DNA of 30,715 nt from Reclinomonas americana ATCC 50394 (taxonomy: Eukaryota), in assembly GCA_048213135.1 (NCBI GenBank), contig PS015022.1, forward strand, positions 294,915-325,629. The letters run 5' to 3'. The notes beneath the pieces were generated by a model. The model was not told the origin of the DNA. It searched no databases and saw only the letters and a list, made by a program, of their open reading frames with translations. This document shows, piece after piece, positions 1 through 29,980 of the stretch. Position numbers and translations under genes: made by a program. Numbering within the stretch: the stretch's first letter is position 1; the number at the start of each line of letters is the position of its first letter.

Positions 1-3000
1 ACTCTCGCAAACTTGCTGGGCGAGGCTGTGCGCTTGCTGCGTGCGAAGAGTGGAGACGGGGCACTGGAGATTGTGGGGGTGGAGAAGCCGATGGAATTCG
101 ACCTGGAGGATGCACCGGTGACGAAGCTGAAAACGCTGGGCATCAAGGCCTCCACGCATCTTGTGGTCCGTGTGAATCTTGGCGCCGCGCTGTCGTCGAG
201 TGGAGGAAGTGGGAGGTCTGTGCGTGTGCACTTTCTTCGTGTCGCAATGCGCGCACGCCACTCACTCCTCTGCGTCAACAACAGCACCTCGGAGCGCGAA
301 ACGCGGTGTGTGCATGTGTCCCGTGAGGTGTCGCCACACACACTCTTCTTGACACTGACTGAGCGCGCAGCATGATCAACTCGCAGCGCATCGACATGGC
401 TTTTGAGGTCGTCGAGGACGCGATTCGTCTGCGCTGTCAGCGCGAATTGGCGCAGTTCAGTCGCGATCATCCCAACTTTGATGTGCGGGCGTGGGTTCCG
501 ACGCACGAGCCGCCTGGCATGGACAAGCAGACTCTCAAGCTGTGGCGATCGCGACACAGCCCATTGCACCACGAGTGCAACCTGTACGTCAAGCTGTACA
601 AGGAGGTGTATGCGCCGATGCTGGAGTGGAAGGCACAGTTCGACGCCGACCCCGCCTCCGATCCGCAGTGCGACGCCTTCGACATGACCGCAATGTGGAC
701 CATACTGACCAACGGAGGATACGTGGAGGAGACGCCGAGTTCTACTGTGTGCGCCTCGTTTCGGCTGCTGAGTGCGGGCCGGGAACGACATGCAATTAAC
801 TGTGCACACGATGTTCGCAACAAGTTGATGCACGGACACCAGTGGCAATCGGCGGAAGTGCAGGCGGATCTGGCAGACGATGGTGTGTTCCTCCACATCA
901 TCTCTCGGCTTTCGTTGACGGCCGATGAGCGTGCAGTCTTTGTCAATCGCATTCGTGAAGCGCGGTTTGTGCAGCTGAATATCAGCACGTACGAAGAGCG
1001 ACTGCATCGATTGGCGTTGCGCGAAATCGAGTTTTATCGATGCGATGAAACATTTCAGAAGAGTATGCAGACCTACGTTCCGCTGCAATGCTCACATGAG
1101 CGTGACGTCTCCGCGAGAGACAAGATGACGGATCTGGTGAAGGAGGTGGATGCTTTCCTCTCCGCCTCCGACACCACCCACCGCGTGCTGGTGCTGTTTG
1201 GCAATAGTGGCGCCGGCAAGACCACCACCATGTCGGTGCTAGCCGAACGAGCATGGCGGCAGCGGCAGGCGGGAGAGAGTCGACGAGTGCCGGTGCGTGT
1301 GCCTCTCGGCGCGCTGCGCAATGCCGACGAGCGATTGTTGGAGGAGGCACTGGAGCGGCTGACGCCCGAATTTGGTTTCGACGAAGACATTCGACGACTG
1401 AAGGATGAACCGTTGCTGTTGCTGTTTGACGGGTACGATGAGTTGTATCGTGGTGTCAATCTGTTTGTCAAGAACCAGTTGGATGCATCCGTATGTCGCG
1501 ACTTGAAGGTGATTATCACCTGTCGAGGCGACTATGCGTTGACGGCACTGGGTGGTATCGCCAATTATCCACGGTTCTTTGCACCAATGGACAGTCACAA
1601 TCAGATGCGCGTGGATCAATTGGTAGAACGGCATATTGCGTCGTTCAACGAGGCGCAGATTGAAGAGTATTTTGACCGATTGGTGAACGTCGACATTGAC
1701 AGCGGTGGAGCCGCGGATGGCGGCGCTGGCGACATGTCGCAGTGGGCCACAGCCGCAGAGTACGTGACCGCGCTGCATGAAGTGCGAGGTCTGAAAGAGC
1801 TGGTGTCGAATCCGTTCATGCTCTCTGTGGTGGCTCGTGTGCTGCCGGCGCTGGTGGCGAGTGGCGTGCATCGCCCGACCCGGTGTGACGTATTTGACCG
1901 CTTCATTCGACAGTGGATCAAGAGAGAACAGGAGAGGCAGACCGGCCTCAATGCCTCGCGGGTACCGAGTGAGGAGAAGTGTCTCGCGTTCTGTGAGGGA
2001 CTTTCACGAGTGATGCACGAGCGAAATGTGGTTCGTGTGTCTGTGACGGAGAGTCAGTCAAGTGACGGAGAAGAAGGGGATGACTTTGGCGGTGCCCCAC
2101 TCGCTGCTCAACAGGAGGAAGAGGGACCATATGACAAGTTCCTCGGCCACAAGAACGAATATGTGCGGGTGTGCTGCCCGATTGTGCAACGCTATGGGTC
2201 AGAGCAGTGGGGGTTCGTGCATCTGTCGTTGCTGGAGCATTGTGTGGCACGGCATGTGTTTGCGTGGGAGACCTGGAAGGAGGAGAGGAGGTTGATGGTG
2301 CATGATCTGCAGCAGCATGTGCTGGCAGTGCGACTGCTGAACGACAGACCATCGTTGGTGGAGCAGATGGCGGAGGTAGTGCGACGGTCTCGTGCTTTGC
2401 AAAAGAGACTGTTAGAGGTGATTGAGTTGTCACGGGAGGTGGATGAGGAACGAGTGGTGACGGCAGCCGCGAATGCAGCGACGGTGTTGTGTGTGGCGCA
2501 GGTGTCGTTCAGCGGACGGGATCTGTCAGGTGTGCGAGTGAGGGGTGCGGATTTGAGGGATGCGGTGATGCACAAGACGGTGTTGAGGGAGGCCGACTTG
2601 CGCAAGGCAAATCTCAGTCGTGCCTTCTGTCGGGAAGCCGACTTTACGCAGTGCAAGATCGATGGTGCGTGGTTGTCGGAGAGACCGCTGGAGGGACATC
2701 AGGGCAATGTGCGATCGGTGGTAGTGTCAGCTGACGGAAGCCGGATTATCAGCGGGAGCTGGGACAAGACGGTACGAGTGTGGAACGCAGACACGGAGCG
2801 GGAAGAATTCTGCCTCGAGGGACACACCGAGCCGGTGCAAGCGGTGGCGATTACGGTGGACGGTAGCCGCGTCGTGAGCGCCGGTCAGGACGCAACACTT
2901 CGTGTGTGGTCCCTTCCGGCTGCCGATTCCGCTGCGCATCGCTGTTACAATCCCGGAGCGGACAAGATCTTTTCGGTGGCGGTCACTCGTGACGGCCAGC

Positions 3001-5043
3001 ATGTTGTGTGTGGCTGCAAGGATGCCACGATTCGGGTTCTGCAATTGAGTGACGGTCAGGAGGTGCAGTGCTTGCGCGGGCACGACGGTCACGTGTGGTC
3101 TGTTGTGCTGACTGCCGATGACACGCACATCGTCAGCGGCAGTGGCGACAAAACCGTACGAATGTGGTCACGAAGTGACGGTCGCGAAGTGCGCCGATTC
3201 GAAGGTCACAATCTCGCTGTGATGAGTGTGGCTGTGTCGCCTGATGGGCGCCTGATGGCCAGCGCCACACGTGACGCACGGATTCCTGCGGAGCAAGTCG
3301 AAGCGTATGCTGCCGCACGGGGCGTGATGCTGAGAAATGGTGGGAAGATCGTCCGTGGATCTGTTCGGCTGTGGAGTGTCGAAACGGGCGCTGAGCTGCA
3401 CTGCTTCGAAATGCNNNNNNNNNNNNNNNNNNNNNNNNNNNNNNNNNNNNNNNNNNNNNNNNNNNNNNNNNNNNNNNNNNNNNNNNNNNNNNNNNNNNNN
3501 NNNNNNNNNNNNNNNNNNNNNNNNNNNNNNNNNNNNNNNNNNNNNNNNNNNNNNNNNNNNNNNNNNNNNNNNNNNNNNNNNNNNNNNNNNNNNNNNNNNN
3601 NNNNNNNNNNNNNNNNNNNNNNNNNNNNNNNNNNNNNNNNNNNNNNNNNNNNNNNAGCCCAGGTCCAGTTTCGAAGCTGTGGCGTTCAGTCCCGACAACA
3701 AGTACCTGGTTATTGGCAGTCAGGACTTTAGCGTGCTGGTGTGGTCGCTGGACGAGGACATTGGTCGCGATGTGAAGGTCCGGCGTTTCGAAGGCCACAC
3801 TGACAAGGTGCTGACGGTGACAGTCTCGCCGGACAGTCGATTCGTGATCAGTGGCAGTATCGACCAGACCATTCGCAAGTGGTCGTTGCAGGAGGGCGGT
3901 GTTCGTCGAGTGGACCGTCACGCTCGGTCGGTGCGGGCGCTGGCTCTTTTGCGCGACGCCGAAGGATGCGTGACGCATATTGTCAGTGGCAGTGATGACT
4001 GTGTGTTGCGAATGTGGGACGTGAGCACCGGCGAGGTGTGCAGTCAGCAGCAGCGCAGAGGACAGATTCGATGTGTAGCTGCTGCTGGCTTCCATGTGGG
4101 GAACACGTGGTCGCGACGTGTGGTATGTGCCAGCAAGCACAGTGGTATCACCTCGTTTGCGGTCAGCGCCAATGGCGAACTGACGGAGAGATGGCACGAG
4201 TCAGTGTGTTTGGATAAAAACTCGTTTCACTCGGCTATCATCACACCCGACAATCAGTACGTGCTGGCAGGCGCCACCAACGGCACGGTGTATCAGTGCC
4301 GTATGAGTGATGGCAAGTTGGAGGCGCTGTTTCACAATCACAGCGACTGGGTGTTGGCACTGGCGACCACCAGGGACGGTCGCTTCTTGTTCAGTGGAGG
4401 TGGCGAAGACAAGTTGGTGTTGATGACGCGCCTCGACAACGGCCTCGTGGTGCGGCGCTTTGTCGGCCACGAAACGTATGTGCGCTACATTATGCTGACG
4501 GCCGCTGAGGATGTGATTATCACCAGCTGCGACGACTCGATGCTTCGATTCTGGTCTGTGGAGACTGGCGAGCTGCTTCGTGTCATTGACACTGGCGGGC
4601 AAGGAGACACCAGCATTCGGTGGCTTGCTCTCTCGACTGATGGTGAGACCATCTTTGTTGCGCGCTCCGACGGCACGGTGCAAGGGTGGTCGTGCACGAC
4701 GTCGACCACACCTCCTGAAATGGTGTGCCGACTCGACGGTCACGTGAATCAAGTGCAGTCGATTTTCCTCGACGACAAGAGCAGCGTGCTAGTCAGCGGC
4801 GGAGACGACTGTACTGTTCGCTGGTGGGAGAAAGAGTGGTGCGTTGTGTTGTTCTCGTTGCTGCTTCGCGGCTTGGCCTGATACATTTTGTCCCTTTTTG
4901 TGTGCAGTGACGAGCGTGGCGGCGGGTACCTGCTGACGCGAGTGTTTGGCCTGTTCAGCAGCGACTTGGAGGCGAGTAAAGGCCTGGATCCGGCGCTGGC
5001 GACGCGCTCTGGAGTGAGTGTTGCACGGCTGCCATCCTCATAA
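1..5043 (+). CDS. STAND/NLR-like NACHT-WD40 (NWD) protein: putative Ubl/UBX-like N-terminal exon, HEPN domain, NACHT NTPase, pentapeptide repeats, ~14 WD40 repeats; 5'-partial
   Basis: Walker A GNSGAGKTT (~1200-1226), Walker B LLLLFDGYDEL, sensor VIITCR and NPFML are present. Pentapeptides (ADLRD/ADLRK/ANLSR/ADFTQ) lie at ~2510-2670 and GH...W[DNS] repeats at 2690-4830. The HEPN-like region has FDMTAMWTILTN and RNKLMH (816-833). Predicted introns 216-370 and 4839-4907 keep frame; stop TAA 5041-5043. The frame change between the two long ORFs falls in gap 3415-3655. Confidence 0.9.
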
Positions 5044-5082: not shown

Positions 5083-5614
5083 TCACGCTGTCGTTTGTGG
5101 TAGTGCGAGCTGCAGCACTGGCGCCGTTTGCTCCAGCTCAGTCCACTGCCAGTAGGAGAGGTAGGCACGATGAAAGTCGGCAAACGTGCCAGCGTCAATG
5201 TGCTGCCGCGCGGCGCGCACGAATCGACAGCAGTGGTCCAGATTGTGGCTGCGCACACACGAGCATTAGTGAGGAAGAAACAATGACTCGCGGGAAGGAA
5301 GGAAAACGCAACATGGCCAGCAGAATGGGGGCGAGCATCTCCTGCGTGTTGTGCAGATGGTGCAAGTAGGCCTTGGTGTGTCGATCGGAGAGCGGTGCTC
5401 CGTGGCCCAATGGCGAGGCGTCGTCCCGGAAACGCAAATGACGGGCATTGACTTTTGGCTGCGCCATGGATGCCAGCAACTCGCGCCGTGGCAGCGAGCG
5501 ATGCACGTCGGTGGACAGGAGCAAATCGATCTCCTCCGACGAGAAGTCGGTGGGGAACGTGAGNNNNNNNNNNNNNNNNNNNNCGCCAGCTCGATCGGGT
5601 ACTCGGTCAGCAGC
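5083..5614 (-). CDS. QTRT2: 3' part of queuine tRNA-ribosyltransferase accessory subunit (QTRT2-like)
   Basis: Spliced translation LLTEYPIELA-(gap)-LTFPTDF...FRDDASPL...HTKAYLHHLHNTQEMLAPILLA|IHNLDHCCRFVRAARQHIDAGTF matches the TGT C-terminus (HTRAYIHHL...LL.HN). Intron 5249-5312; stop TGA at 5083-5085. Confidence 0.85.
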
Positions 5615-5624
5615 GTGTGATCGC

Positions 5625-6238
5625 GATCGACTCAGCAGCCTGTGATCGACTCGGTGGTGAGGGTGAAGAGCGATGGTCAACTGCCAAAGATTACATCGAT
5701 GCACTGGAGATTGTGCCCGTGTGCTACCGGCGCTGGTGACAAGTGGCCATGGTGTCCAGCGACCGACTCGGTGTGACGTGTTTGACCGCTTCATTCGACA
5801 GTGGATCAAGAGAGAACAGGAGAGGCAGACGCGTCTTGGGGCAGAGCATGTGCCGAGTGAGAAGAAGTGTCTGTCGTTCTGTGAGGGACTGGCGCGGTTG
5901 ATGTATGAGAGAAATGTGGTTCGTGTGTCTGTGACGGAGAGTCAGTCAAGTGATGGAGAAGAAGAGGATGACTTTGGTGGTGCACCGCTCGCTGCTCAAC
6001 AGGAGGAAGAGGGACCATGTGACAAGTTCCTCCGCCACAATTGCAAGAACGCACAAAACACTTCATTCACCACATTCCAATAATGCGACAAATGTCCACA
6101 AATCCCTTGCCGACGAACGAATATGTGCGGGTGTGCTGCCCGATTGTGCAACGCTATGCATGTATGGATCTGAGCAGTGGGGTTTTGTGTATCTGTCGTT
6201 GCTGGAGCATTGTGTGGCACGGCATGTGTTTGCGTGGT
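5625..6238 (+). pseudogene. Fragment of a NACHT-WD40 paralogue (post-NTPase helical region), disrupted
   Basis: Long identical runs with ~1833-2267 (RPTRCDVFDRFIRQWIKREQERQ, ERNVVRVSVTESQSSDGEE, LSLLEHCVARHVFAW). The GLKELVSNPFML segment is deleted, there is an insertion at ~6041-6114 and there are frameshifts. Confidence 0.88.
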
Positions 6239-6313
6239 GCTATAGATATAAAAAAAACACTTCATTCACCACATTCCAATAATGCGACAAACGCCCACAA
6301 ATCCCTTGCCGAC
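6055..6313. repeat. 60-bp direct repeat (6055-6114 and 6254-6313)
   Basis: aaaacacttcattcaccacattccaataatgcgacaaaYgYccacaaatcccttgccgac; 2 mismatches between copies. Confidence 0.95.
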
Positions 6314-6461: not shown

Positions 6462-9400
6462 TCATCGTTTCTCGCGGTTTAGGAAGCGCAGGCTCAAAAA
6501 GGTGAGCACCTTGCTCGCTGCAATGATGGCAATCATATAGCCGCAGGAGGGCCACTTGTCGTCGACTGAAATCGCGTAGTACTGTTGCAGTAGCTCTTCG
6601 CCATCAGGGCAGTGCGGCGTGGGCGGACAGCGGAAAGTGCGATTGGCCATTTCTAACACGTACAAGAGAGTGGTCACGACGACACTGGAGGCGATGAATG
6701 CAGAAAATCATGATCACTTGTACATACCGGAGATCGCCAAGGCTTGAAAACCCCAGCGAAAGAATGAGAGGTACTCGATGCCAGTGTAGTGGAAGTATGA
6801 AGGCACCTGCACTCTCAAATGAGTAAGTCCATTGAGAAACAAAAAACTCAGCTTCTTGCATGCAGCAGCACCTCGACGATGAAGAACTTGGAGAACAAAA
6901 TCTAAGACCGCGTCGGCGATGATGCGATAAGTTATGAGAACCATGGACGATCGACAAGCTCGTACACCACGATTGCAGTTGCATTGACACGAACCATCAT
7001 GGACAGCAGCATAGCGACAGCAGCACTCGCAACCGTAAAGTTTGGCGTGATTGACGCTGCGTAGACGTCAGTCACAGTGGCCATAACTTCAAGATTGCGA
7101 TAGTTATTGGCTCACCAATAAACTGGCAGGTGGAATAACCGGCGTTCAAGATCAGGAACGAGGCGAATACAAAGAAGGCAAACCTGCCGAAGTCGGCTTG
7201 AAATCCCATCTGTGTACGTGTGTCAACTTAATCTTTCTCAGTTGAAGAAACACAAATAGAGTCGTCAAACCATGAAATAGGCCACCACCGTGAACGAGAG
7301 GCTCTCCGCGACCGACACAACCAAATCGCAAACAGTAATGGCAATGAACATTGACGACGTGCGGTACAGCCGAGAAGCTCGCTCCCTCTGGAAGCGCGCA
7401 CGCTCTTCAATCACTGCAAAACGAGCAGAACGACGACCATGAATGTGTGTGGGCTATGAGAAACACTGATACACACAAGCAATTATCATCAATCGACGAA
7501 CGACGAGGCATTGTGGGTATCGAAGAGAGTCCAAAGAAGGTGACGTTGAAAAAGATGGCCTTGAACTTGTCCAGCGCTCTCGCCAAGTCGGTGAGCTCAA
7601 GTCCCAAGTATACAAGGCCGACCATTAAGGCAATGATGATTGACCCAGCCAGCCTGCGCAAGATTTGTTCACAATGACACATACACAACCAACTTCTCGG
7701 ATATCGCGTCTCCACACACCGAGACCAGATCACCGAGAACTCCCGAAGTGAGTACCTCCAGATTCGTGAACTCAGGATGACAAACTGTTGCGGTATACAC
7801 GCTCTCGGTAAATAATCACACAGCGCCAAGTACAAGTGAACTGCACCCGAGAAAGGAACGAACTTCCTTAAGAATGCCGTTGGGATAAGCAGCCTCCTGT
7901 AGATCACACGCGTAATGCGTCAAACCATCATGCACAAGAGGACCGTCTGTATCGCAACATCTCTCGCATGTACATACCTCGATGGCCTCTAGTCTTTTTG
8001 CCGATGTCGCGTACACGAGCCCTGAACCAGTAGATCATGTGGACAATGTCAGAACTCTTGAATACTCCTGCAACGGGAAAATGCTCACGCAACTGTTAAC
8101 AAACTGGTCAAAGTGTGCTGCATCCCCACCCGGGACTGGAGCTCCTTCTTGCATTTGCTGCCCCTGTCCAGGTTCAACGAAGCGGAAAGGAGGATCCTCA
8201 TTACCGTAGTCTTCGGGCCGTCCCTGAATCCTCTGAAGCAATCCCAACACCCTGTCAGCAGGATTCAACAACGCGCCGCCCTCCTCGATGTCGGAGTCTT
8301 GATTTTGTCCACGTGGAATCAACCAACGGGCCCCGCGGCCGAAACCTAAAGCTTCGCCTTGGGCAACGACATCGGCCACGGAGGAAAGCGCTTGCTTCGG
8401 TGGCCCAATGTAGATGGTTCGGCCGCCTTCTGCGAATGTTGCAACATATATATATGATGATGCTCAGCGCACGTCACTCTTCGGGCCGGCGGGGCATAGC
8501 AACAGACAACATTGTTGCGCAACTTGCCAAAAGTACTACCATGTCAAACATGTCAAAGACTTCCTCAGAAGGTTGGTGGATTGTCATGAGAGCGAAACGT
8601 GACTGTCTGCGCCCCATCACCCACGCTTGAATCCGATGCACCAGAACACGAGCGCTGTTGCCGTCCAGCCCTATGGTGCTGTCATGAGCAAGAAAACTAA
8701 AGAGCTCTGATGTGCTGCAGCAATAATTCTTGCTGGCTGCGCATATGTGCATACTGCTCTCTGAAACTCGTTGCGCACGGACATGAATGCGCTGCANNNN
8801 NNNNNNNNNNNNNNNNNNNNNNNNNNNNNNNNNNNNNNNNNNNNNNNNNNNNNNNNNNNNNNNNNNNNNNNNNNNNNNNNNNNNNNNNNNNNNNNNNNNN
8901 NNNNNNNNNNNNNNNNNNNNNNNNNNNNNNNNNNNNNNNNNNNNNNNNNNNNNNNNNNNNNNNNNNNNNNNNNNNNNNNNNNNNNNNNNNNNNNNNNNNN
9001 NNNNNNNNNNNNNNNNNNNNNNNNNNNNNNNNNNNNNNNNNNNNNNNNNNNNNNNNNNNNNNNNNNNNNNNNNNNNNNNNNNNNNNNNNNNNNNNNNNNN
9101 NNNNNNNNNNNNNNNNNNNNNNNNNNNNNNNNNNNNNNNNNNNNNNNNNNNNNNNNNNNNNNNNNNNNNNNNNNNNNNNNNNNNNNNNNNNNNNNNNNNN
9201 NNNNNNNNNNNNNNNNNNNNNNNNNNNNNNNNNNNNNNNNNNNNNNNNNNNNNNNNNNNNNNNNNNNNNNNNNNNNNNNNNNNNNNNNNNNNNNNNNNNN
9301 NNNNNNNNNNNNNNNNNNNNNNNNNNNNNNNNNNNNNNNNNTTGGTTGGCGTCCCGAGGCCGCAGGCGGCGACACTACGAAGGAAACCGAACGAAGGGGA

Positions 9401-11529
9401 GCCGGCTGCGGCGGAGTGACACGAGCCATCAGAGGCTGGTCCATCAGACGCACGAACTCAGCCGAAACCACCGTGTCCGGTACGCCGGTGCCCGCCTCCA
9501 GACGCGAGTAGGTGTGCACCATGCGCTCGACGCGCCAGTTGAACAGGAATGCCACCTGCTTGACAGAGAAGCCAAGCAGACGTGCCGCCGAGCAGGCACC
9601 TGACCGAAGTGACGAGCCACTGACGGCACCCGACGACTGGCGAATGTGACCAACTGGGGATACTGATATGGCCGCATCCACCGCCGCACGAACCGCCACC
9701 CGCACAGCCTGTAAGTCCATCGGGCCGCCACGGGCGGATGGGAAAAGCGGAGCGCCTGGACCATCACCGTCAGCCAGTCGAGAAGCCACCCACGCTTGCA
9801 GACGCGATAACCACGGAGACCCGCGCCAGTCGCCGTACCACAGCAAAGACCGAGGAGGTTGAGGACGAAGGCGCTCAGTCTTCTCCACCGGAACCGTGAA
9901 CCGGGACACCTTGCCGGCGTTGTCGAATGCAACATCGCACAGCCTGATGCTGGCCAAAGAACCGGGGCGGAGACCGAGGAAGAAGCCAGTGACCACCAGG
10001 AGAGCCTGCGCCTCCGAGCACGACAGCGACGATGGCGAAGCACGAAGGAGCACCGAAACCACACGCCAGTCCAGAGCGCGCGACCGATGCAGCGGGTCGG
10101 CCGCCAGCGCCACAGCCTCCGTGTCCCACGGATCCGACGGTGTCGCCGCCAAACCCGCGACCATGTCCTGCTTGTACAAAGCCGAATAGCCAGCCATCGC
10201 CTGCGTCACCAGGAAGTGCTTGGTAGGATCGTCAACGCTCAGCACCCGGTGAAACCGTGAAATGGCCGACAACAAGTTGCGGATGGTGGAAGGGGCATAC
10301 GCCACCTCTCGACCACTACGGCACCGCTCCAAAATCGCCAGAACGCTCGANNNNNNNNNNNNNNNNNNNNAAATAAACTCACCTGTTGTCGGTTCATCCA
10401 GGAACAAGGCAGAAGGTTCTCGAAGCAATTCCACAGCAACGGCAAGCCTCCTTCGCTCACCTGCGACGGCAAAAGAACGGCATGAAACCGGCGAGTGCAA
10501 AACGCCGCAAAGGGGAACGCAGCAGTGATATACAGCGCACGCACCGCCAGATAGCCCTCGTTTCATCACCGAGCCGACTTGGCTGTTTGCCTTGCCTGTT
10601 AGGCCCATAATCCTCATTACTTCGTCCACCTGCGCTACGTACAAGTACCGACGAGTTTAGTGTAACTATACTCGCTCGTTGTCGACGAAGTGGCACGAAC
10701 CTTTGTGCTCTGTTGACGAAGTCGCCCAACATATTCCAGCGTCTAAGACCACAAACAAGAGGATGCCGCTCAACAAAAGCGATCGACGAAGCCGCAGGGA
10801 ACCATTAACGGTAACGCACCTCGCGCACTGTCAGTACTGGATTCAGCGTGTCGTCCTGTGTGAAAAATCACGTCCACGTTTAGATGGACGTCCAGTCGGC
10901 TAGCAGAAGTGATGGATGTACCTGAAGAACGTAAGCTGTGGACCGTTGAGGCATAGTATTACACACTTGGGTGACAATTATGATGGATTTGTTTACGGCA
11001 CCTGAACAAGCTTTGAAGGATCGGCCTACATTAGTGAGCGACTGCTGGTTGACCAAGATGTCGTCAGAATAAGTGTCTCTCGCTCGGCCAGTAACTGCAG
11101 TCCAAGCATGTATGAGGGGTATGATTTCGATCATCGCAACACGACGAAAGACTAAGGGAGGACGCACGTGCGTCCAGCAAACAGGTTTTCCCAGCACCGC
11201 TGGGGCCTGCACATGCAACAAGTGCTTAGCAAAGTGGAACGCAGCGCCCACACATTCACAGCACTCCCTTCACCGAGAATAGCAACGGTCATCCCCGGCC
11301 TCACAAATCCGACGGTGTTGTTCAACAGTGTCATTGTCTATCGACATGCATGCGTGATTAGAGACAACGCTGCGACACTGAAATGCACGAAACAGCACGC
11401 AGCTGTGTTGCGTTGCTTGATCGAGCGGCGTACGTTTTTCCAAGTCAACGTACATGTAATTGGATCCAAAGTCGGCAAATGCTCGAGCTCATGCATGCGG
11501 TGGTACTCGCCACTGGCACCTGCAGCCAT
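6462..11529 (-). CDS. ABCG (White-like) half transporter, multi-exon; start codon uncertain
   Basis: Spliced motifs in order: LTWKNV, AILG|PSGAGKT (Walker A), AYVLQ|DDTLNPVLTVRE, RGLSG|GERRRLAVAVELLREPSALFLDEPTT|GLD, TIHQPS, LLA|KGGRTIYIGP, NPAD. The TM domain follows (ERARFQRERASRLY; EYLSFFRWGFQALA) and ends FLNREKR*. Confidence 0.92.
9342..10350 (-). mobile_element. DIRS/Ngaro-type tyrosine recombinase ORF (partial, gap-flanked) inside an ABCG intron
   Basis: Open frame with core-binding segment YAPSTIRNLLSAISRFH...DPT and catalytic-domain motifs FFLGLRPGSL (R), VEKT (K), PLFP, SGSSLRSG (HxxR position), FNW and HTYSR (Y). It lies within intron 8671-10382, which splits DEPTT|GLD. Confidence 0.88.
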
Positions 11530-12143
11530 TTCCACGCGAATTCTGCTGATCGCAACAGGAACACGCAAGATGCTGCTGCGCCAGCAGAGCGCTGCGTACG
11601 CACGCACAAACAGTACACAAACACATGCAAACGCAGCGCAGCGCGCGGTGAGGGTACGCGAAATGAAAACAAGTGGAGAAACGAGTTCGGGTGTTCACCG
11701 CGCTGCAAGGGATCAAAAACGGAACGCGCTGCGCTGAAAACACATGCGAGGACACGCAGCGCTGAGCTCGTGGCGGACATGGCGGACATGTGGCGGACAA
11801 TACTTGATCCAACTTTATACTNNNNNNNNNNNNNNNNNNNNNNNNNNNNNNNNNNNNNNNNNNNNNNNNNNNNNNNNNNNNNNNNNNNNNNNNNNNNNNN
11901 NNNNNNNNNNNNNNNNNNNNNNNNNNNNNNNNNNNNNNNNNNNNNNNNNNNNNNNNNNNNNNNNNNNNNNNNNNNNNNNNNNAACCATCTTTTCGTTGTT
12001 TGTGTGTCGGAGAGAAGGTTACACCTGTGCCACACAAACCCAACTACTCTTTACCGTTCCACGATCCACTTAGTGGCGGTCCGTTGCTCTATTCGCTTGC
12101 TCGATCTGTGAATCTCTTCAGTGCGGCCATCTCCCTTCACGTC

Positions 12144-13586: not shown

Positions 13587-13651
13587 AGGTCGGCAGGCCT
13601 CGTCGCAGAGCTGTGCCCGTGGTGGCAGGTACGGCAGCGCGGCGAGGCCTG
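13584..13651 (+). promoter_or_regulatory. Candidate stop-codon readthrough signal: TAG + 7-8-nt spacer + extended stem-loop
   Basis: CAGGCCTCGTCGC (13594-13606) pairs with GCGGCGAGGCCTG (13639-13651; 13 bp, one G-U). GCTGTGCC (13610-13617) pairs with GGTACGGC (13628-13635; two G-U). The terminal loop is 10 nt. Confidence 0.6.
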
Positions 13652-14927
13652 GACACACGCGTCGGCGGACGTTCGCTCCGTCGTCGCGTTCGGGGCTCGC
13701 TTGGAGTGGGGTCCGGGCGGGCCTCCGCCACCATTTCGTCTGCCGGAGCGTCCGGTTCCCGGCAGATTGTTGCCAGCCGTTCACGCGGAGCTCGATCGAA
13801 TGGTTTCCATCGGTCTTGTCCGCGAGGTTGCTCCGGGGAGTGCGCGGTTTTGTTGCCCTGCCTCGGCCATCGTGAAAACGAAGGCCGATGGCTCGGTCAA
13901 GACCCGCATTGTCACGGACCTGAGGCACATCAACCGTCACCTGTCTGTGCGCCGTTATCGCCAGGAGGGCCTCAGGGAGGTGCGGTCGTTGGTGTCGCAG
14001 GGCGACTTGTTCGGCGTGGGCGACGTGCGCGATGCCTTCGTGCACTGCGCAATTCATCCGGAACACCAGCAGTACCTCGGATTCGCCCTGGCTGGCCGCG
14101 AGTTCGAATGCACCGCCGCACCCTTCGGTCTGCGCCACAGTCCGATCCTGTGGAAGAAGATGATGGACGTGGTGATGCTCGATTTGCGTGCCCAGGGTGT
14201 CCGATGCGTCTGTTTTGTGGACGACGTGTTGCTGATCGCTCACTCGCAGTCGGAGTATCGTGCGGCGAGGGAGTTGTTTCTCAGCACGTTGGCCAAATAC
14301 GGCGTGCAGATTGCGCCCGGCAAGATGCCGTCCAGAGTGGGCTCGTCGACAATCGAGTACCTCGGGATGGTGGTCTCGTCGGAGGCGCCTGCACCGTCGT
14401 TCGCCGTCACGCCCGCCGTCTGCGCCGACATCCGGCAGCGCGCCGCCTCGCTGGTGCGCGACTGGGAGTCTGGTCGCACACGCTTCAGGGCGAGGCGCAT
14501 CAAGTCGGTGGTGGGCAAGCTGCAGAGCGTGGAGTTGGCCGTCCCCTCAACGCGTCTCCACACACGCGAACTGCACAATTGCCTCGGCGGCAAGTTCGGC
14601 AACCTCCGTGTATCTCTCTCCCTCCAGGCGGTCAGAGACCTGCGATGGTGGGCGGAGTTGGACGGTACGCGAGCGTGGAAGCCAATGGTTCTTGCCCCTC
14701 TAACCGCGCCGATTCAGGTCTGGACGGACGCCTCGAAGCTCGGCTACGGGGTGGTCTTGGACAGCCTGCAGTTCGGCGCCGACTTTCCGGTCGAGTGGCG
14801 TGGGCGGTCGATCAACCAGCTGGAGCTGGCCGCTGTTCTGCTGGCCTTTCAGTCGCTGCGCGAGCGGCTAAGCGGTCGGCAGATCCTTTTGCGGTCAGAC
14901 AACTCGACCGTCATTGCGACTCTCAGG
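13587..14927 (+). CDS. Reverse transcriptase-RNase H (pol), 3'-truncated by gap
   Basis: RT motifs RIVTDLRHIN, DVRDAFVH, PFGLRHSP, FVDD, IEYLG; tether DLRWW; RNase H motifs WTDASKLGYG, INQLELAAV, RSDNSTV. Same frame as gag. Confidence 0.93.
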
Positions 14928-15655
14928 NNNNNNNNNNNNNNNNNNNNNNNNNNNNNNNNNNNNNNNNNNNNNNNNNNNNNNNNNNNNNNNNNNNNNNNNN
15001 NNNNNNNNNNNNNNNNNNNNNNNNNNNNNNNNNNNNNNNNNNNNNNNNNNNNNNNNNNNNNNNNNNNNNNNNNNNNNNNNNNNNNNNNNNNNNNNNNNNN
15101 NNNNNNNNNNNNNNNNNNNNNNNNNNNNNNNNNNNNNNNNNNNNNNNNNNNNNNNNNNNNNNNNNNNNNNNNNNNNNNNNNNNNNNNNNNNNNNNNNNNN
15201 NNNNNNNNNNNNNNNNNNNNNNNNNNNNNNNNNNNNNNNNNNNNNNNNNNNNNNNNNNNNNNNNNNNNNNNNNNNNNNNNNNNNNNNNNNNNNNNNNNNN
15301 NNNNNNNNNNNNNNNNNNNNNNNNNNNNNNNNNNNNNNNNNNNNNNNNNNNNNNNNNNNNNNNNNNNNNNNNNNNNNNNNNNNNNNNNNNNNNNNNNNNN
15401 NNNNNNNNNNNNNNNNNNNNNNNNNNNNNNNNNNNNNNNNNNNNNNNNNNNNNNNNNNNNNNNNNNNNNNNNNNNNNNNNNNNNNNNNNNNNNNNNNNNN
15501 NNNNNNNNNNNNNNNNNNNNNNNNNNNNNNNNNNNNNNNNNNNNNNNNNNNNNNNNNNNNNNNNNNNNNNNNNNNNNNNNNNNNNNNNNNNNNNNNNNNN
15601 NNNNNNNNNNNNNNNNNNNNNNNNNNNNNNNNNNNNNNNNNNNNNNNNNNNNNNN

Positions 15656-17031: not shown

Positions 17032-19552
17032 ATGAAGACGCCAAGGCGGCCGCTATGGTGGCCGCCTTTTCTGCTTTCGTTGCTGGTGTTAGTGGTGGCG
17101 CTTGTTGTTGTATTAGTGGAGGCAGAGGAGGAGTGGAGTGGGGAAATGGAGCCCTTTGTGCGGGAGAAGGCGGCGACAGTGGAGGAGAAGTTGGATGAGG
17201 ATTGGCAGGATGAGGATGGTGCGCAGGAGGAGGAGGAGGATGCGTGGACGTTGGTGCAGCCGAGTGGCGCGGGGACTGTGGCCTTGGCGAATGATTTGCA
17301 TGAGGTCTCTCTCTCTCAGGCAAAAGTTGCTGTGAGTCTGTGTGCTCATGGTTGCGCGCAGGTTTTCGAGTCAATGGTGTCGTCTGAGCAGGTGGGGAAC
17401 CTGCATGTGTTGAACTGGTGAGAATTGAGCGAGACTGATGTTATGTGTGGTTTTTTGTGCAGCCGGTGATCCAGCCAACGGTTCCGGCTCTGAGCCCACC
17501 AGCGTCCACTGTGCAGCAGCCGCTGATTGCCAACGCCGCGGTCGGTCGCTACTATGGTGGAAGCAGTGGAAACTACTACGGCAGTGGAAACTACTATGGG
17601 AGCGGCAACAACGGCAGCGGCAACTACTATGGGAGCGGCAACTATGGCAGTGGCAACTACTATGGGAGCAGCGGCAACTACTATGGTGGTGGTGGTGGTG
17701 GTAGTGGCTACTATCGAGGCAGCGGTCTCGGCTACTACAACAACAATTACAACAACAACTACTACCCACCGCAGAAGAAGAGCGCATGGAGCAGCTTCAA
17801 GTCGGGCCTGAGCAGCGCTGGCTCGTGGACGGCATCCAAGGCCAAGAGCGCCGGTTCGTGGACCGCCGACAAGGCCAAGAAGGGCGGTCAGTGGACGGCG
17901 GAGAAGGCCAAGAAGGGTGGTCAGTGGACGGCGGAGAAGGCCAAGAAGGGGGGTCAGTGGACGGCGCAAAAGGCCAAGAGCGCCGGTTCGTGGAGCAAGC
18001 AGAAGGCCAAGGAGGCCAAGGCTGCGGCGCAGCGCAAGTACGAGCGAGCCAAGGCGGCGTGGGAGAAGCGACAGCTCAACAAGGAGAAGAGGAAGTTGGC
18101 GGAGGAGCGCCGCAAGCTGCGCATGTACAACCAGCAGCTCAAGGACATGGCCAAGAAGCAGAAGAACTGGGCCGCGCGTCAGCAGGAAAAGGCGGAGCGC
18201 GCTGCGCGTGGGCCTGCCAACAAGCGCGCCCTAGACAAGATCAAGGACTGTGTGCGCACGGATCGCAAGGCCGAGTCCAAGTACAAGAACAAGATGGATG
18301 AGTTGAACAAGCGCCTGACGAAGCTGGGCAAAAACTCGGCGGCGGCTGCCGAGTTGCGCAAGGAGGCTCGCCGCATCGAGGAGCTGCACAAGGACGGCCT
18401 GAGACGCCAGCAGGCCAAGTTCAAGCAGAGCCTCAAGAAGCTGAAGGACAGCAAGAAGAAGGACCTGGCGAAGGCCAAGAAGCAGTGGGCGCTGCAGTGC
18501 AAGCAGGCGGCGGCCAAGAAGCTTGCGCTGAAGCGCCGTGCGGCCTTTGCTCGCAAGTGCCAGCTGAAGGATCGACTCGTGGACGCACTGCGTCGTCGCA
18601 TTGCCGACATGCGCGAGTCGATGGCGGACCTGCGCATCAGCAACAAGCAGCTGCGTCGGGACCAGCATGTGAAGCTGACCGACATGTTGTCGCGCAAGTT
18701 GGCCACGGCCCAGCAGGCGCTGTCGCAGCTCTTGCAGACGGAACGCGATCGCGTGCGGCATCAAGTGCGCGAAGTCGTCGAGGAGCGCCTGCGCAACTTG
18801 CAGTTTGCGGTGCGTATTTTGTGTGTGTGTGATGCAGTGTTTGGTGCCGATTGCTCAAACTCTTCTTTTTATCGCAGCGATCGATGCGAGCTGCAAAGAG
18901 CGCCAAGGTCGACTACTGCCTTCCACTGGAGCACATTGTGTCGCGACTGAAGCGCTCGCAAAAGGCATGCGCGGCCGGCTCGTCCGAAGCCGACTGCTCC
19001 GACTTGGACAACCGCATGCAGGTCATCCGAGACGAGCTCAGCACGTGTCGCGGCATCAGTTGCGTGAACATTGACATGCCGGCAAAGGCGGTGGTTGGCT
19101 CATATATCGCTGGTGTACTGCGCAGTGGCGGCTCGAGGATTCGTCCCGCCGCCGCCGCCGCCGCCTCCGAATGCCCCCAAGGCCGGACCAGTGACCAGGG
19201 TGCCGCCCAAGGCCGGACCACCGCCACCAAAGGCACTGCCGCCCCCACCACCGGCGTATCGTGCACCTCCGCCACCGGCCTATCGTGCACCGCCGCCCCC
19301 TCCGCCTCGCCAGTACGCACCACCGGTCCCGTATCGTCCTCGAGCGCGGCCGCCACCGCCGAGTTGCCACCGCTGGAAATACGAGCCGGTAACTAACTCG
19401 TCACTCCTTAATGCGTCTCTCTCGCGAATGCTCACTCATCCGCGCAGAGCGAATTTGGCTTCCCTTACGATGGTGCCGCACGGTATCGCTCGGCGCCGCC
19501 ACCATCGTCGGCACCGGCACCGGCACCAGCAGGCGGCTACTATCGTGCGTGA
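17032..19552 (+). CDS. Secreted modular repeat protein (Gly/Asn/Tyr repeats, 11-mer repeats, Lys-rich coiled coil, Pro/Tyr tail); function unknown
   Basis: Signal-like FLLSLLVLVVALVVVLVEA, then an acidic segment. Predicted short introns ~17306-17360, 17392-17462, 18810-18877, 19059-19125 and 19389-19447 join the ORFs in frame. Strong codon bias; stop TGA 19550-19552. Confidence 0.8.
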
Positions 19553-22162: not shown

Positions 22163-25100
22163 CTAAAAGAAATCGTCAAACAAGTTCTGTGTGGCGGCAC
22201 ACGCATGCAAGTGAGTGAGTGAGCAGTTCAGCAAGAGCAGCGTGGAAAGGAGACACTGACCTGCGAAGCAGCGGGTTTCGGAGGCTGCGCCGCCGCCGCC
22301 GCTGCGGGTTTGGGAGGTTGCGCCGCGGGGCCAGTCGCGGGCTTGGCGGGCATTGGCGGACCAAAGTCGTCGGCAAAGTCACCGAAACTCGACGCAGCCG
22401 CGGGGGCGACGGCGGCCGGTGGAGCGGCGGTGGCCGGCTTGGGCATTGGTGGGCCAAAATCGTCGGCAAAGTCGTCAAAGCCACCACCACCGCCACCACC
22501 GGCTGGAGCTGGTGGCTTACTGGCCGCTGCCGGCAAGGGCTTGCTGGCCGGAGCCGCTGGCATTCCAAAGTCGTCGCCAAAGGCAAACGAGCTGGCGGGC
22601 TTGGCGGCAGCGGGTGCCGGTGCTACTGCAGCCGCTGCTGGTTTCGTCGGCGCCGGGCCAAAGTCGTCGCCAAAATCGAATCCACCGCCGGGCGACGCAA
22701 CAGCCGCCATCGCCGGCACCGACGATGGCGGTACGGGTGTCGCGTGGTGGGAGGCAGGCTTCGCAGCAGGCACAGGTGCCGGACCAAAGTCATCACCAAA
22801 GTCAAAAGCGCCGACAGCAGGCTTGGCGGCGGCGGCAGGAGCGGGTACTGCGGCACCACCAGCCGGCTTCACCGGCGCCGGTCCAAAGTCGTCGCCAAAA
22901 TCGAAACCACCACCCGGCGACGCCACATTGGCCACCACCGTTGAGGCTGTACGTGCGGGTGCTGCCGCTGCTGCCGAGGCGGGCTTGCTGCTGATGCCGA
23001 AATCGTCGCCAAAGTCGAACCCACTGCTGCTGCTGCTGCCGCCACCCTTGCCACCATTGTTGGCCATCGGTGCCGGTGCCGAGGCTGCCTTGTTCTTCAT
23101 GCCACTGCCCATAAAGAGGTCGTCGTCCAGCGACGAGACTGCAGTTGTGACCGCCGCCGTTATTGGCGCCTTGCTGGCCGTCACACCAAAGAGACTGCTG
23201 CCAAAGTCCAGCGTGGGAGCCCCAATTGAAGGCGGCGGTGTAATCTTGGTCGGTGTCGACAGAGGCGAATCGAGGTTGACGTCAAAGTCGAGGCTCGACG
23301 TGCTGGTGTGATGCTGCAAGGGCAGTGCGCCACCAAAGGCCACTCGTCCCGCGCCCGCATGCCCACCAATGCCGTCTCCGGACTGCGATGGGAGGAAGGT
23401 GAGCCACGTGATACAAGGAGAGGGCGTGTCATTATTCTTCATGCAAACCTTTGGTGGACCGCCGAAACCCCTGCACATGAAGACACAAAAGGTAAGTCGC
23501 GAGAGAATTATGATCGACATGCTGGTGCAGACGCGACGCAACATGTCGCCGAATGAGACACTGGGCCGATGATCGCCAGCGGCACCACCACTGCAATTCA
23601 ACGCATGAGAAACCAAACTGCAGTGCAAGGCGACATAGAGAACGCCGCGCAACTCGGGTGGTGCGTCAGCCTTGGAAGAGCCGTTGCCGCCACGTCCGCC
23701 TCCAACGGACGACGAGCCAGTGGCCGCATTGTGTGCCAGGGAACCCGTGTGTTCCGAATTGAGTGCAAGGAACGAGCGCAAGTCTTCCCACAGCGAGAGG
23801 TATTGCTGCTTGGTAAAGTTCTCGACAAAAGCGCCCGGGTCGGTGCGAGCCCTCTTGTCGGTGGCACTGAACACGCTCTGTTGCAAGTGGAAAATCGACT
23901 CGTCGCCTGCGTCGAACTTATGTCAGGCACGACCAACAACACAGAGCGAATGGCGAAAAAAACACCAACCGAGAACACGAATGTTGGTGAAGAGGCCGTT
24001 GGTGAGGTCATTGAACCACTCGTAGAATCGGTCGCGGAACACGGCCAGAATGCGCCACGACGGACCACGAATCTCCCATCGCAGTGTGAACGACGCTCGT
24101 CTCCGTGCATCCTGCCACAGTCGATGAGCACACTGCTTTGGGTACGAGAAAATGAAAGGGGAAAAAAGAGACGCACCGGCGCCACCATCGCGCCGAGGAC
24201 TTCGGTACCCTGCATAAACATGTAGACGGGTTCGCCGAACCACGTGCTCGACGCGAATGACATCTGTCGATAACAGAAGAGTATGTTACTCAACCATTCT
24301 GTCTGCATTCGCACGAGCCACATTACATACCTGCACTCCGATGCCGTTCATGTACACGCGCTCAATGACAGTCTCGAACGGCGACTCCCACAGAGCGTCG
24401 ATCAGCAGGTCGATGACCTGCATGTGTGTTTCACATGTCAGCTACTTCTCACCAAGAAACACACAAGCCCACTGAATGACCTTTTCTGCCGGGCAGTCGT
24501 CCTCGTCGCCCAGAACCAGCGGCAAGTCAGCCTGTCACACCACCAAGCACATATGAGCACACACTTTGTGCGCAAAATTCCCTCTCTCTTTCTCCCTCGC
24601 CATACGTAACCTGCGCGGTAAAAGCGGCCGGCAAGCGGGTCCACACGCGGAGGAAATCGGCCGGCGTCGCCGTCACCAACGGTTTCAGCAGATCGTTGAC
24701 CGTCATCTTCAGCGGCTGACAGCGGACAGTGATGGTATCGGCATCGTCACGCGCCAGCACGTCGGAGAACGAAGCATCGCTCTCGCTCTGCGGCGCCGCC
24801 GTGGTGAGGTTGCGACCGTTCGACGCGTGGAACGTGAGCACCAGATGGAAGGCGTTGTCGGCCCAACCACCGACAATGTAGGTCCACTCGCAGATGCACT
24901 GGGCGCCGACGTCGAGCTTGGCGAGACTCTGTGGAGAGGGAGAGGGAGAGGGAGAGGGAGAGGGAGAGGGAGAGGGAGAGGGAGAGGGAGAGGAGAGGAG
25001 AGGAGANNNNNNNNNNNNNNNNNNNNGGGGGAAGGGAGAGGGAGGGAGAGGGAGGGAGAGGGAGGGAGAGGGAGGGAGGGAAGCGTGAGAATAGAGCGGG

Positions 25101-25333
25101 AAGAGAGAGAGAGAAGTGGGAATACATGCACTCGAGAGGACAGAAAATAGAGACAGACACAAGAAAGAGAGCACGAGAGAGAAAGGGAAGAGAAGAGAAG
25201 CGAAGAGGGAGAGAGAGAGCGCGCGCGTGAGAACGAGAGTCCGAACTCGTATAGGGAGAGAAAAAAGTGAACAACAGACAAACAGATACGCACGCTCCGG
25301 AAAGGAGCAAGAGAGAGGAAGGGAGAAGGGAAG

Positions 25334-25372
<39 letters not shown>

Positions 25373-28300: not shown

Positions 28301-29941
28301 GGAATGTAGTGCAGCACCGAGGCTGTGTGCTTGAGAATGCCGTTCAGCACGAAGCGCGAGTCCGGTCGGCGTGCCACGTCCAGCAGGCCCGACACGCTGG
28401 TGTACACCCAGCGGCCTGTGGGGGAGACGAGTGAGGGGAAGAGATGGGGGAGAGGGGGGAGGAGGGGAAGGGAGGGGAGGAGTGGGGGAAGAGTGGGGGG
28501 AAGAGTGAGGGGAAGAGAGGCGGAAGAGATGGGGGGAGAGAAGGGTAAGAGATGGGGAAGAGAGGGGGGAGAGAAGGGGGGAGAGAAGGGGGGAGAGAAG
28601 GGAAGAGGACGGGGAGAGAAGGGGGAAGAGAGGGAAGAGAGGGGAAGAGAGGGAAGAGAAGGAAGAGAGGGGAAAGCATGGGGAGGAGCATGGGGAAGAG
28701 AAAGGGGGAAAGAGAAAGGGGGAAGAGGAGGAAGAGAGAAATGAGGGAAGAGAAACGAGAAAGATTACAAGGAAGGAGGAAGACAAGCGATAAGGGACAG
28801 GAGGGACAAGGAGGGGAATGGTCGTCAAGTAATTTCACAGTACAAGCCTCCATCGCGACAGCAAGAGCGAGTGATGACACATGATCCTGTATATCCACTG
28901 CACTCACCAGAACCGCTCTCCGACCGACCACTGACAATCTCTGCAATCGCCAGGGAGCTCTCGTACACGAGACTCTCGCTCTCTACACACGACAGCTGCG
29001 GAATGACAAACTCCTCGACCAATTCGCTCGCTGCGGGTGATGCGTCTGTCAGCTGCCACGCACATACATGCCCAGCAAAAAAACGAGAAACTCTCCACGC
29101 ACCCTCAATGAAATTCGGCAGCAGTGTGAGATCTTCGTCACCACGCGAGCTCTCCTGAATCACCGCCACACGCGCCAGTGGCCACACACACGAGTGGCGG
29201 AGGGCAGACGGCAGCGCACGAACACGATCGACCAGATCGCGGAATCGTTGTGACACGCAGTCGGCAATCACACCCTCGAGACTCAGCGCCTTTTTCACCG
29301 TGTCCCTACACATACGAGCCTGGTCAGCACACGCTGGAGGAGCATCACAACGTCTTCCAACGCAACGGTGCTGGGTCGTTGCGAAGGAGATTCTTGAGGT
29401 CCATCAACGCGTTGCGGATGGCCGCAAATGCAGCATTGCACACATTGTCGTCGCCGTCGGCCAGACGCTCACACAAGATGGTCAGCACGCGCGCCGGCAT
29501 CCATTCCTGCACGTTGCGCGTGTCGGCCGCCAGCTTCATTCTGTCGGCGCCGGCCTCGAACGTCATGCCCGGCGTTGCACCATCCTTTGATTAGTCAGTC
29601 AGTCAGGGACAGGGCGTGAGAGAGAGAGGAAGGTGGGGGAGGAAAGAGACTCAACTTGCGCGCCGGTGAGTTTGGTGGCCATGAGGCCTGTGTCGAGCGA
29701 CGAGCCCGATGGTGTGCGCACGTGCCACACAATGTAGACGCGCATCAAGTCGGTGACGGCGAGACTGTGGGGAGTGAGAAGGGGGAAGGAGAAGGGAGAG
29801 ATGGAAGGGAAGGCATAAGACAGGGAAGCGAAGAGAGGGAGAGAGAGAGAGCGCGCGTGTGAGTGCGTGCAAGGAAGCCTGACAAGCTCACTGGAGGTGA
29901 ACGAAGAAACGAAGCAGCGTAGAACAGAGTGAGGGATGCAG

Positions 29942-29980
<39 letters not shown>

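Follow-up and report, generated by a model that had tools for sequence, protein, structure and literature searches.

Fungal NOD-like receptors (NLRs) of the HET-E type consist of a NACHT-WD40 body that carries a swappable N-terminal death or effector head, while RNase L and the KEN domain of Ire1 are HEPN-class RNases that become active when ligand drives the oligomerisation of a module upstream of them. A HEPN head mounted on an NLR switch is itself an established concept. In animals, HEPN domains of the DZIP3 type are fused to NACHT, CARD, Death and LRR domains, with expansions in Nematostella, oyster and Capsaspora (Table 1 of PMC3710099); the same source records CXorf38 HEPN-NACHT fusions and bacterial proteins in which a HEPN domain is joined to a signal transduction ATPase with numerous domains (STAND). 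The account of the pearl oyster in PMC9646362 lists more than 50 NACHT proteins with an N-terminal DZIP3 HEPN domain, NACHT proteins that in some cases end in WD40 or TPR repeats, and a catalytic motif of which Rx4H is the commonest form (131 proteins) and which falls within Rx4-6H in 194 of the 202 DZIP3-HEPN proteins; HEPN heads in further animal immune architectures are described in PMC8195603. Here we describe a gene from Reclinomonas americana ATCC 50394 that may belong in this company. It occupies positions 372 to 4881 on the forward strand of a stretch of 30,715 nucleotides (contig PS015022.1 of assembly GCA_048213135.1, positions 294,915 to 325,629), the whole of which we call the window, and it encodes a predicted NACHT-pentapeptide-WD40 protein whose first 210 residues, the N-domain, could be a highly divergent HEPN head related to those of DZIP3 and Swt1. 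This interpretation of the N-domain is plausible but unproven.

The order of parts is the clearest point of resemblance. DZIP3/hRUL138-like HEPN-NACHT proteins of bivalves, cnidarians and other animals (PF18738 with PF05729), as represented in the sources cited above, begin with a HEPN-type head, which is followed by the NACHT and then by repeats, sometimes WD40 or TPR, at the C-terminus; the Reclinomonas protein, with its candidate HEPN head, has the same order, and the bacterial HEPN-STAND proteins recorded in PMC3710099 carry an N-terminal HEPN head on a STAND NTPase, which is the order that we propose here. The N-domain has in common with DZIP3 HEPN domains an FD.T....L.N block, an RN pair some 33-35 residues further on, and a DDxxF block, but it is only 16-23% identical to members of that family, fails their Pfam model, and is without both their P-rich GW loop and the arginine of LLRN. 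The protein also departs from animal HEPN-NACHT proteins in possessing pentapeptide repeats and in having a NACHT domain that is nearest to fungal and bacterial proteins. The likeness to RNase L and Ire1 is a functional analogy, in that the same mechanism is proposed, although their switch is a pseudokinase or kinase and not a NACHT; the likeness to HET-E lies in the NACHT-WD40 body, since HET-E carries a HET domain, for which Pfam gives no match in our protein. The gene is laid out as follows.

372..1001, + strand: orphan N-domain (aa 1-210), an all-alpha candidate HEPN-like effector, marked out by its open frame and codon signature
678..713, + strand: FDMTAMWTILTN block (aa 103-114), which aligns to the DZIP3 hallmark FD[IV]TLLxxLLRN
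816..839, + strand: RNKLMHGH (aa 149-156), candidate catalytic motifs Rx4H (H154) and Rx6H (H156)
1002..1181, + strand: pre-NACHT segment common to the NACHT-module relatives, whose sequence ahead of Walker A is similar
1182..1544, + strand: NACHT NTPase core (aa 271-391), PF05729, E 7e-9, 36.2 bits against a cut-off of 26.7
1200..1226, + strand: Walker A, GNSGAGKTT (aa 277-285), intact
1413..1442, + strand: Walker B, LLLLFDGYDE (aa 348-357), intact
1545..2501, + strand: NACHT-associated region, from the NTPase core to the repeats, inside the 28-30% identity alignments with P0003-P0010
2502..2678, + strand: pentapeptide repeats (about aa 711-769), PF00805, E 4.2e-11, 42.6 bits against a cut-off of 20.2
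2685..3410, + strand: WD40 repeats, first part (aa 772 onward), PF00400, E 2.5e-39, 132.5 bits against a cut-off of 27
3415..3655, no strand: run of 241 N marking an assembly gap in the gene, with unlike frames on either side
3658..4881, + strand: WD40 repeats, second part, PF00400, E 8.9e-40, 133.9 bits

Sequence comparison confirms that the predicted protein has the tripartite layout of the STAND/NLR type, in which an N-domain precedes the NACHT and this in turn is followed by pentapeptide and WD40 repeats. NACHT, pentapeptide and WD40 families were all matched in Pfam above their cut-offs, so that the sensor architecture proposed in a preliminary description of this DNA is upheld; the NACHT-associated region at 1545-2501 matched no Pfam family of its own. 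When aa 225-730 were used as a query, eight proteins (P0003-P0010) were found at E <=0.001 among 8000 scored candidates, with 28-30% identity over 91-100% of the query; the names attached to them include Mycoavidus cysteinexigens and Linnemannia elongata, and one is a EukProt entry. Their precomputed Pfam domains comprise NACHT in six, pentapeptide repeats in seven and WD40 in all eight. The best-matching relatives of the NACHT module are P0003-P0009, NACHT-pentapeptide-WD40 proteins from fungi of the Mortierellomycota and from Mycoavidus bacteria (E 5e-34 to 3e-25, coverage 94-100%), in which the three domains follow one another in the order seen here.

The likeness of these relatives to the Reclinomonas protein begins some 50 residues ahead of Walker A and their N-termini, which place 84-543 residues before that motif, are unrelated to ours. 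Neither N-domain motif is present in any of P0003-P0009, and among themselves the relatives' N-termini are of at least three kinds, with two pairs alike. A Pfam run on P0003-P0010 was dominated by WD40 families and returned nothing informative on their heads; the precomputed list for one of them includes PF13676 (TIR_2). Since the relatives bear differing N-termini at the same position, aa 1-210 occupy the swappable head slot of a STAND/NLR-type protein. This agrees with the earlier assignment of the N-domain to the effector position, and both of its motifs do lie upstream of the NACHT, as had been said.

A single open reading frame links the N-domain to the NACHT. From 372 to 3410 it is stop-free for 1013 codons before it runs into the assembly gap, past which another frame supplies 407 more codons of WD40 and a stop codon at 4879-4881. 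A change of frame across a run of N is to be expected in draft assemblies, where the length of such runs is arbitrary. The gap cuts the WD40 region, which makes any count of blades, and the protein length read from the two parts, provisional. GC contents at the three codon positions are 0.62/0.41/0.72 in the N-terminal 210 codons and 0.67/0.41/0.65 in the NACHT part; scored by the codon usage of the remaining gene, the same 210 codons give a log-likelihood of +0.245 bits per codon in frame and no more than +0.02 in any of the other five. As far as sequence statistics can show, then, the N-domain is translated in frame with the switch. An antisense open reading frame (ORF) of 362 aa (3-1088, - strand) overlaps it, with a codon score in the gene's usage that is about zero or negative; this is most likely a GC-rich artefact, and it indicates that long spurious ORFs do arise in the window. 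We also considered whether the partial ORF at 1-372 (+ strand) is part of the gene and rejected it, given that it lies in another frame, that the gene's own frame is closed by a stop at 324-326, and that it has no Pfam match. This ORF is open at its 5' end, its stop overlaps the ATG of the gene (ATGA), and it may represent the 3' end of an upstream gene.

Two motifs bring HEPN domains to mind, and both stand where the preliminary description had placed them, with FDMTAMWTILTN at 678-713 and RNKLMH at 816-833. The former agrees with the DZIP3 block exactly at F, D, T, L and N and conservatively in M/I, M/L and I/L, but has T in place of the invariant R. The latter belongs to DVRNKLMH (aa 147-154, nt 810-833), in which R149 to H154 span nt 816-833; a polar residue, N150, follows R149, and histidines stand at +5 and +7 (H154 and H156), which is the Rx4-6H arrangement of HEPN domains. 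In the six-frame translation of the window (61,426 aa) FD[ILVM]T occurs once, at 678, and the pairing of that block with an RN-x3-4-H lying 25-45 residues further on is likewise found nowhere else, although this combined pattern was composed after the sequence had been viewed and its uniqueness is descriptive, not a P-value.

For comparison we assembled two sets of HEPN domains. A search of 401 bacterial genomes with PF18731 matched 12 genomes at 13 places, and the 12 places above the cut-off were aligned as a Swt1-like set (A1). Eight of its 12 rows have RN[RK]WAH, making RN-x3-H the commonest form, while the position of the DZIP3 FD.T block is taken by LDxAALLR, against FDMTAMWT in the Reclinomonas protein, which moreover lies in eukaryote-like DNA. 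At five of the 13 places (L002, L003, L004, L008 and L009) the Swt1-like domain belongs to a large multidomain protein, whose open frame is 1050-1223 aa long. PF18738 was not found in the same 401 genomes. DZIP3-like loci were gathered by scanning metagenome contigs with the back-translated DZIP3 motif FD[IV]TLLxxLLRN. The scan gave at least 120 loci (L015-L134), and among the matches listed 101 of 120 have an open frame across a full DZIP3-type HEPN domain; many of the 101 come from a few contig series. All 19 representatives chosen at less than 62% mutual identity (A2) match PF18738, with a best E of 4e-62, which establishes the motif as a hallmark of the DZIP3 family. The FD.T block and RN-x3-H had been said to typify DZIP3 and Swt1 domains together; the block holds for DZIP3 and RN-x3-H for the Swt1-like set, but the block does not extend to Swt1. 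The catalytic spacing of the 101 listed domains is Rx5H in 87 and Rx4H in five, with no R[ND]x2-5H in the expected slice of the other nine, whereas Rx4H is reported to be in the majority in the pearl oyster (PMC9646362).

Comparison with these sets gives results that lean towards HEPN. An hhalign comparison of aa 1-260 with A2 returned P=0.0035 (probability 9.3%) and placed aa 72-116 on the stretch W..L.P...FDITLL.VLLRN. With its filters off, hmmsearch gave the N-domain 3.2 bits with the A2 profile, a score reached by 24 of 3000 shuffles, and glocal Viterbi alignment over the Pfam-defined core gave -13.7 bits, where shuffles average -28.3 (standard deviation 5.2) and 19 of 2000 did as well. 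With A1 the signal is fainter: hhalign aligned aa 139-178 at P=0.067 only, with RNKLMH set on RNRWAH, the motif of active HEPN domains of the Swt1/Ava_2192 type (PF18731) to which the [VI]RN[RK]xxH of our protein conforms, and the profile gave 2.8 bits (101 of 3000 shuffles as good). When the query was aligned by MAFFT with 58 DZIP3 domains, F103, D104, T106, N114, R149 and F173 were invariant in all 59 rows and N150 nearly so, N114 and R149 being 35 residues apart against 33 in the family. Low-mact hhalign traced a colinear path across 168 columns and, like MAFFT, set R149-N150 on the invariant R-N of DZIP3; an hhalign -glob alignment, misaligned from end to end, was discarded. Finally, in a protein-language-model atlas the nearest named clusters to the whole N-region and to aa 60-215 were HEPN_Swt1 (0.82, 0.78) and HEPN_DZIP3 (0.77, 0.77), with a third cluster, lacking a common family, at 0.76 in the second search. 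It is the rare block, the second motif at the spacing of the family, the position at the head of the protein, and the fact that both HEPN families proposed beforehand are the only named atlas neighbours, that speak in favour of HEPN. That aa 1-210 are a highly divergent HEPN-fold head related to DZIP3 and Swt1 is accordingly offered as a tentative reading, one that we place slightly below an even balance of belief.

Other results weigh against that reading. Six constructs compared with Pfam at E up to 10 gave no HEPN family, only DUF4132 noise below cut-off (E 0.03-0.14); HEPN_DZIP3 was not reported and its gathering cut-off (PF18738, 27 bits) not reached, nor was HEPN_Swt1 reported for the N-domain or its cut-off (PF18731, 27.5 bits) attained, and the Pfam comparison proposed in the preliminary description thus gave no family match. 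NCBIfam offered only TraQ noise, PADLOC had no match in the N-domain, and phmmer against PDB sequences found nothing beyond noise (E >=0.5). Neither a word-indexed search of 5.8 billion proteins nor a phmmer search of 1.84 billion representatives turned up a homologue of aa 1-260; the sole phmmer match (P0002) was rejected as an artefact, being a 775-aa tandem-repeat protein whose score is the sum of 12 weak repeat matches. Pattern scans for the N-domain in metagenome and viral contigs found nothing, and the one locus from a scan of genome contigs (L001) runs antisense to a 398-aa ORF and was dismissed as a chance match. A second copy of the N-domain was not found within the window. RN...H on its own is of low specificity, with eight occurrences in the six-frame translation, and when the 210-aa domain is shuffled it arises in 631 of 20,000 cases (3.2%), while the looser R[NHDQ]x3-5H arises in 7,886 of 20,000; furthermore, the invariant R of DZIP3 LLRN is T113 in our protein, and A107 and M108 replace LL.

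Controls on the profile scores are no more favourable. In a noise test on 309 sequences, comprising the ORFs of at least 60 aa in the window together with P0002-P0010, the ORF of the gene ranked seventh with the DZIP3 profile and tenth with the Swt1 profile, and the 3.2 bits of the isolated N-domain would have ranked third. Over the 29 conserved columns of A2 (MAFFT --add) the query matches 12, a result equalled or exceeded in 66 of 250 and 87 of 400 shuffles; with non-aliphatic columns only, 96 of 400 shuffles did as well, and with weighting by information 44 of 400. Judged by these counts, the long colinear alignment is not significant, and MAFFT will produce its like from a shuffled sequence. 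The atlas scores of 0.77-0.82 are of a height that, by the calibration of the atlas itself, is attained with a third of shuffled proteins. There is circularity too, in that the site was picked in the preliminary description by its motifs, and A2 was collected by the motif itself and has motif columns that are invariant by construction, so that the P-values are inflated. The claim of HEPN identity with which that description began has the motifs, their spacing and P-values of about 0.003-0.01 in its favour, but no family match and no score that stands clear of the noise in the window.

Structure prediction adds little to either side. AlphaFold predicted the N-domain, from the single sequence, at a pLDDT of 43.3 and a pTM of 0.27 and, with the 58-member DZIP3 alignment, at 63.5 and 0.28, with aa 118-142 and 153-160, which flank the catalytic motif, below a pLDDT of 50 in the latter model. 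The single-sequence model is all-helical by DSSP, in keeping with the helical appearance noted earlier, but at low confidence. Foldseek matched nothing in the PDB with the alignment-guided model at E <=0.001 (best E 5.1), VIA-align against 48,161 chains gave no Z >=5, its best rows being single-helix overlaps at Z <=4.7, and a prediction for two copies of aa 1-215 gave no verdict (score 0.00). AlphaFold with Foldseek, which had been put forward as a way of settling the matter, therefore yielded helices of low confidence and no match at E <5; neither HEPN nor any other fold is predicted with confidence.

How much these failures mean can be gauged from A1 and A2, two genuine HEPN families, which hhalign aligned with each other on the RN..H region at P=0.02 and a probability of 2.4%. 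With profiles as shallow as these, scores much like those of our protein are what one would anticipate from a third, separate HEPN family, so that the failure to reach significance counts only weakly against a HEPN fold. The likeness of motif and the weak language-model neighbours fell to shuffle and noise controls, but the same controls are unable to separate two families that are certainly HEPN.

The principal alternative is that aa 1-210 form an all-alpha orphan domain that has no kinship with HEPN, although NACHT oligomerisation would still deploy it, and in which the FD.T and RN...H matches are coincidental; it could be a new signalling adaptor or some other effector, for example a helical-bundle head for membrane targeting or homotypic interaction. 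The want of family matches and homologues speaks for such a domain, as do profile scores within the noise of the window, a conserved-column test equalled by 11-26% of shuffles, atlas scores in the range of noise, and the failure of the DZIP3 alignment to draw AlphaFold into a HEPN fold; NLR heads are, besides, highly variable, as they are among the NACHT-module relatives. What it must leave to coincidence is a FD.T....L.N block that is unique in the window, with RN-x3-H following at the spacing of the family, local and glocal profile P-values of 0.003-0.01, and an atlas whose two named neighbours are the two HEPN families proposed beforehand. Nor does any known alternative step into the breach, since Pfam at E up to 10 found no HeLo, HET, Goodbye, TIR or Death-type head in the N-domain. 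We regard an orphan domain of this kind as a serious possibility, though one short of likely. A narrower variant, properly a sub-case of the HEPN reading, is that the N-domain descends from HEPN but is catalytically dead and acts as an RNA-binding or dimerisation module, as has been proposed for eukaryotic Swt1. Positions invariant in the family have been lost (T113 for the R of LLRN; A107 and M108 for LL), nine of the 101 listed DZIP3-like domains are without R[ND]x2-5H in the expected slice, and PMC3710099 describes the Swt1 HEPN as probably inactive and the DZIP3 motif as 'mostly conserved'. However, R, N and the histidines at +5 and +7 are all present, and these are the residues by which active HEPN domains are defined in the relevant parts of PMC3710099 and PMC9646362; we consider loss of activity unlikely.

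It may also be that the N-terminal region lies outside any working protein, either because the gene is a decaying copy in a repeat-rich and gap-ridden region or because translation starts downstream. The 241-N gap with its change of frame does break the gene, a degraded paralogue fragment and pieces of retroelement adjoin it, and the 362-aa antisense ORF at 3-1088 is an example of the long spurious ORFs that the window contains. Yet the frame stays free of stops for 1013 codons up to the gap and 407 beyond it, the first 210 codons share the codon usage of the remaining gene in no frame but this one, and the motifs of the NTPase are intact. A non-functional N-terminus is, in our judgement, quite improbable.

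If we return to the reading of the N-domain as a HEPN head, a mode of action can be proposed from what is established about NACHT proteins and HEPN RNases, of which the present analysis demonstrates the parts list only. The C-terminal pentapeptide and WD40 repeats would keep the protein off until ligand is bound. The NACHT NTPase, through K283 of Walker A and the Walker B in LLLLFDGYDE, would then exchange its nucleotide and oligomerise, and oligomerisation would draw the N-terminal heads together. Paired heads could form a composite active site of R149, N150 and H154 (or H156) that cuts RNA, and the outcome might be growth arrest, cell death or the destruction of invader RNA. What we infer is that the head has a HEPN fold and RNase activity, that proximity activates it, and that the protein acts in immunity or cell death. 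The further suggestion that the N-domain founds an unrecognised, sequence-orphan HEPN family, and that this provides a NACHT-pentapeptide-WD40 receptor of a non-animal eukaryote with its killing head, is possible but rather doubtful.

Were it correct, HEPN heads would have become fused to NLR switches in organisms other than animals, whether independently or by head-swapping between kingdoms, and more such heads would be hidden below the reach of profile searches. If the N-domain is a HEPN RNase at all, a non-animal eukaryote would possess an RNase gated by an NLR and built on a NACHT body of the fungal or bacterial kind, and the range of HEPN-NACHT fusions, as it is set out in PMC3710099 and PMC9646362, would be widened beyond animals and bacteria; the protein would also provide a compact construct for studying the proximity activation of HEPN domains. 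If the N-domain is not HEPN, it would be a new orphan NLR head. Under either reading the gain is incremental, because the idea of mounting exchangeable toxic heads on STAND switches is an established one. A narrow full-text search of the literature gave no match for a HEPN-headed NLR in a protist, which does not imply that none has been published.

A partial copy of the gene's own NACHT family lies 1 kb downstream:

5653..6240, + strand: broken paralogous fragment of the NACHT-associated region, without an N-domain (tblastn, 85% identity to aa 488-593)

This fragment copies about 1850-2270 of the gene, with 85% protein identity across 108 residues, and DNA alignment reveals insertions of 74 bp and 8 bp with changes of frame; its presence indicates that the NACHT family is multi-copy in the genome. 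The window is a draft with seven gaps, the runs of N other than that inside the gene being at 5564-5583, 8797-9341, 10351-10370, 11822-11982, 14928-15655 and 25007-25026. A reverse transcriptase (RVT_1, E 1e-17) with a weak match to RT-RNase H is encoded at 13587-14927 (+ strand), and its best protein relatives are only distant Gypsy-type polyproteins, while a separate ORF at 9343-10350 (- strand) has a sub-threshold match to Phage_integrase (E 0.005). The two may be pieces of a tyrosine-recombinase retroelement. Together with the many low-complexity ORFs, the retroelement reverse transcriptase makes the surroundings fit a eukaryote. At about 10371-10644 (- strand) there is an ABC-transporter-like signature and Walker B (LSGG ... 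LFLDEPTTG) split by some 30 unrelated residues, which suggests an intron or a broken gene. Long ORFs built of repeats and without a Pfam match occur at 17439-18947 (+ strand), 22231-23922 (- strand) and 24500-30500, with units such as KAKKGGQWTAEKAKK and FDFGDDFG, and there are also extensive CT-type microsatellite tracts that read as SLSL or PLPL when translated.

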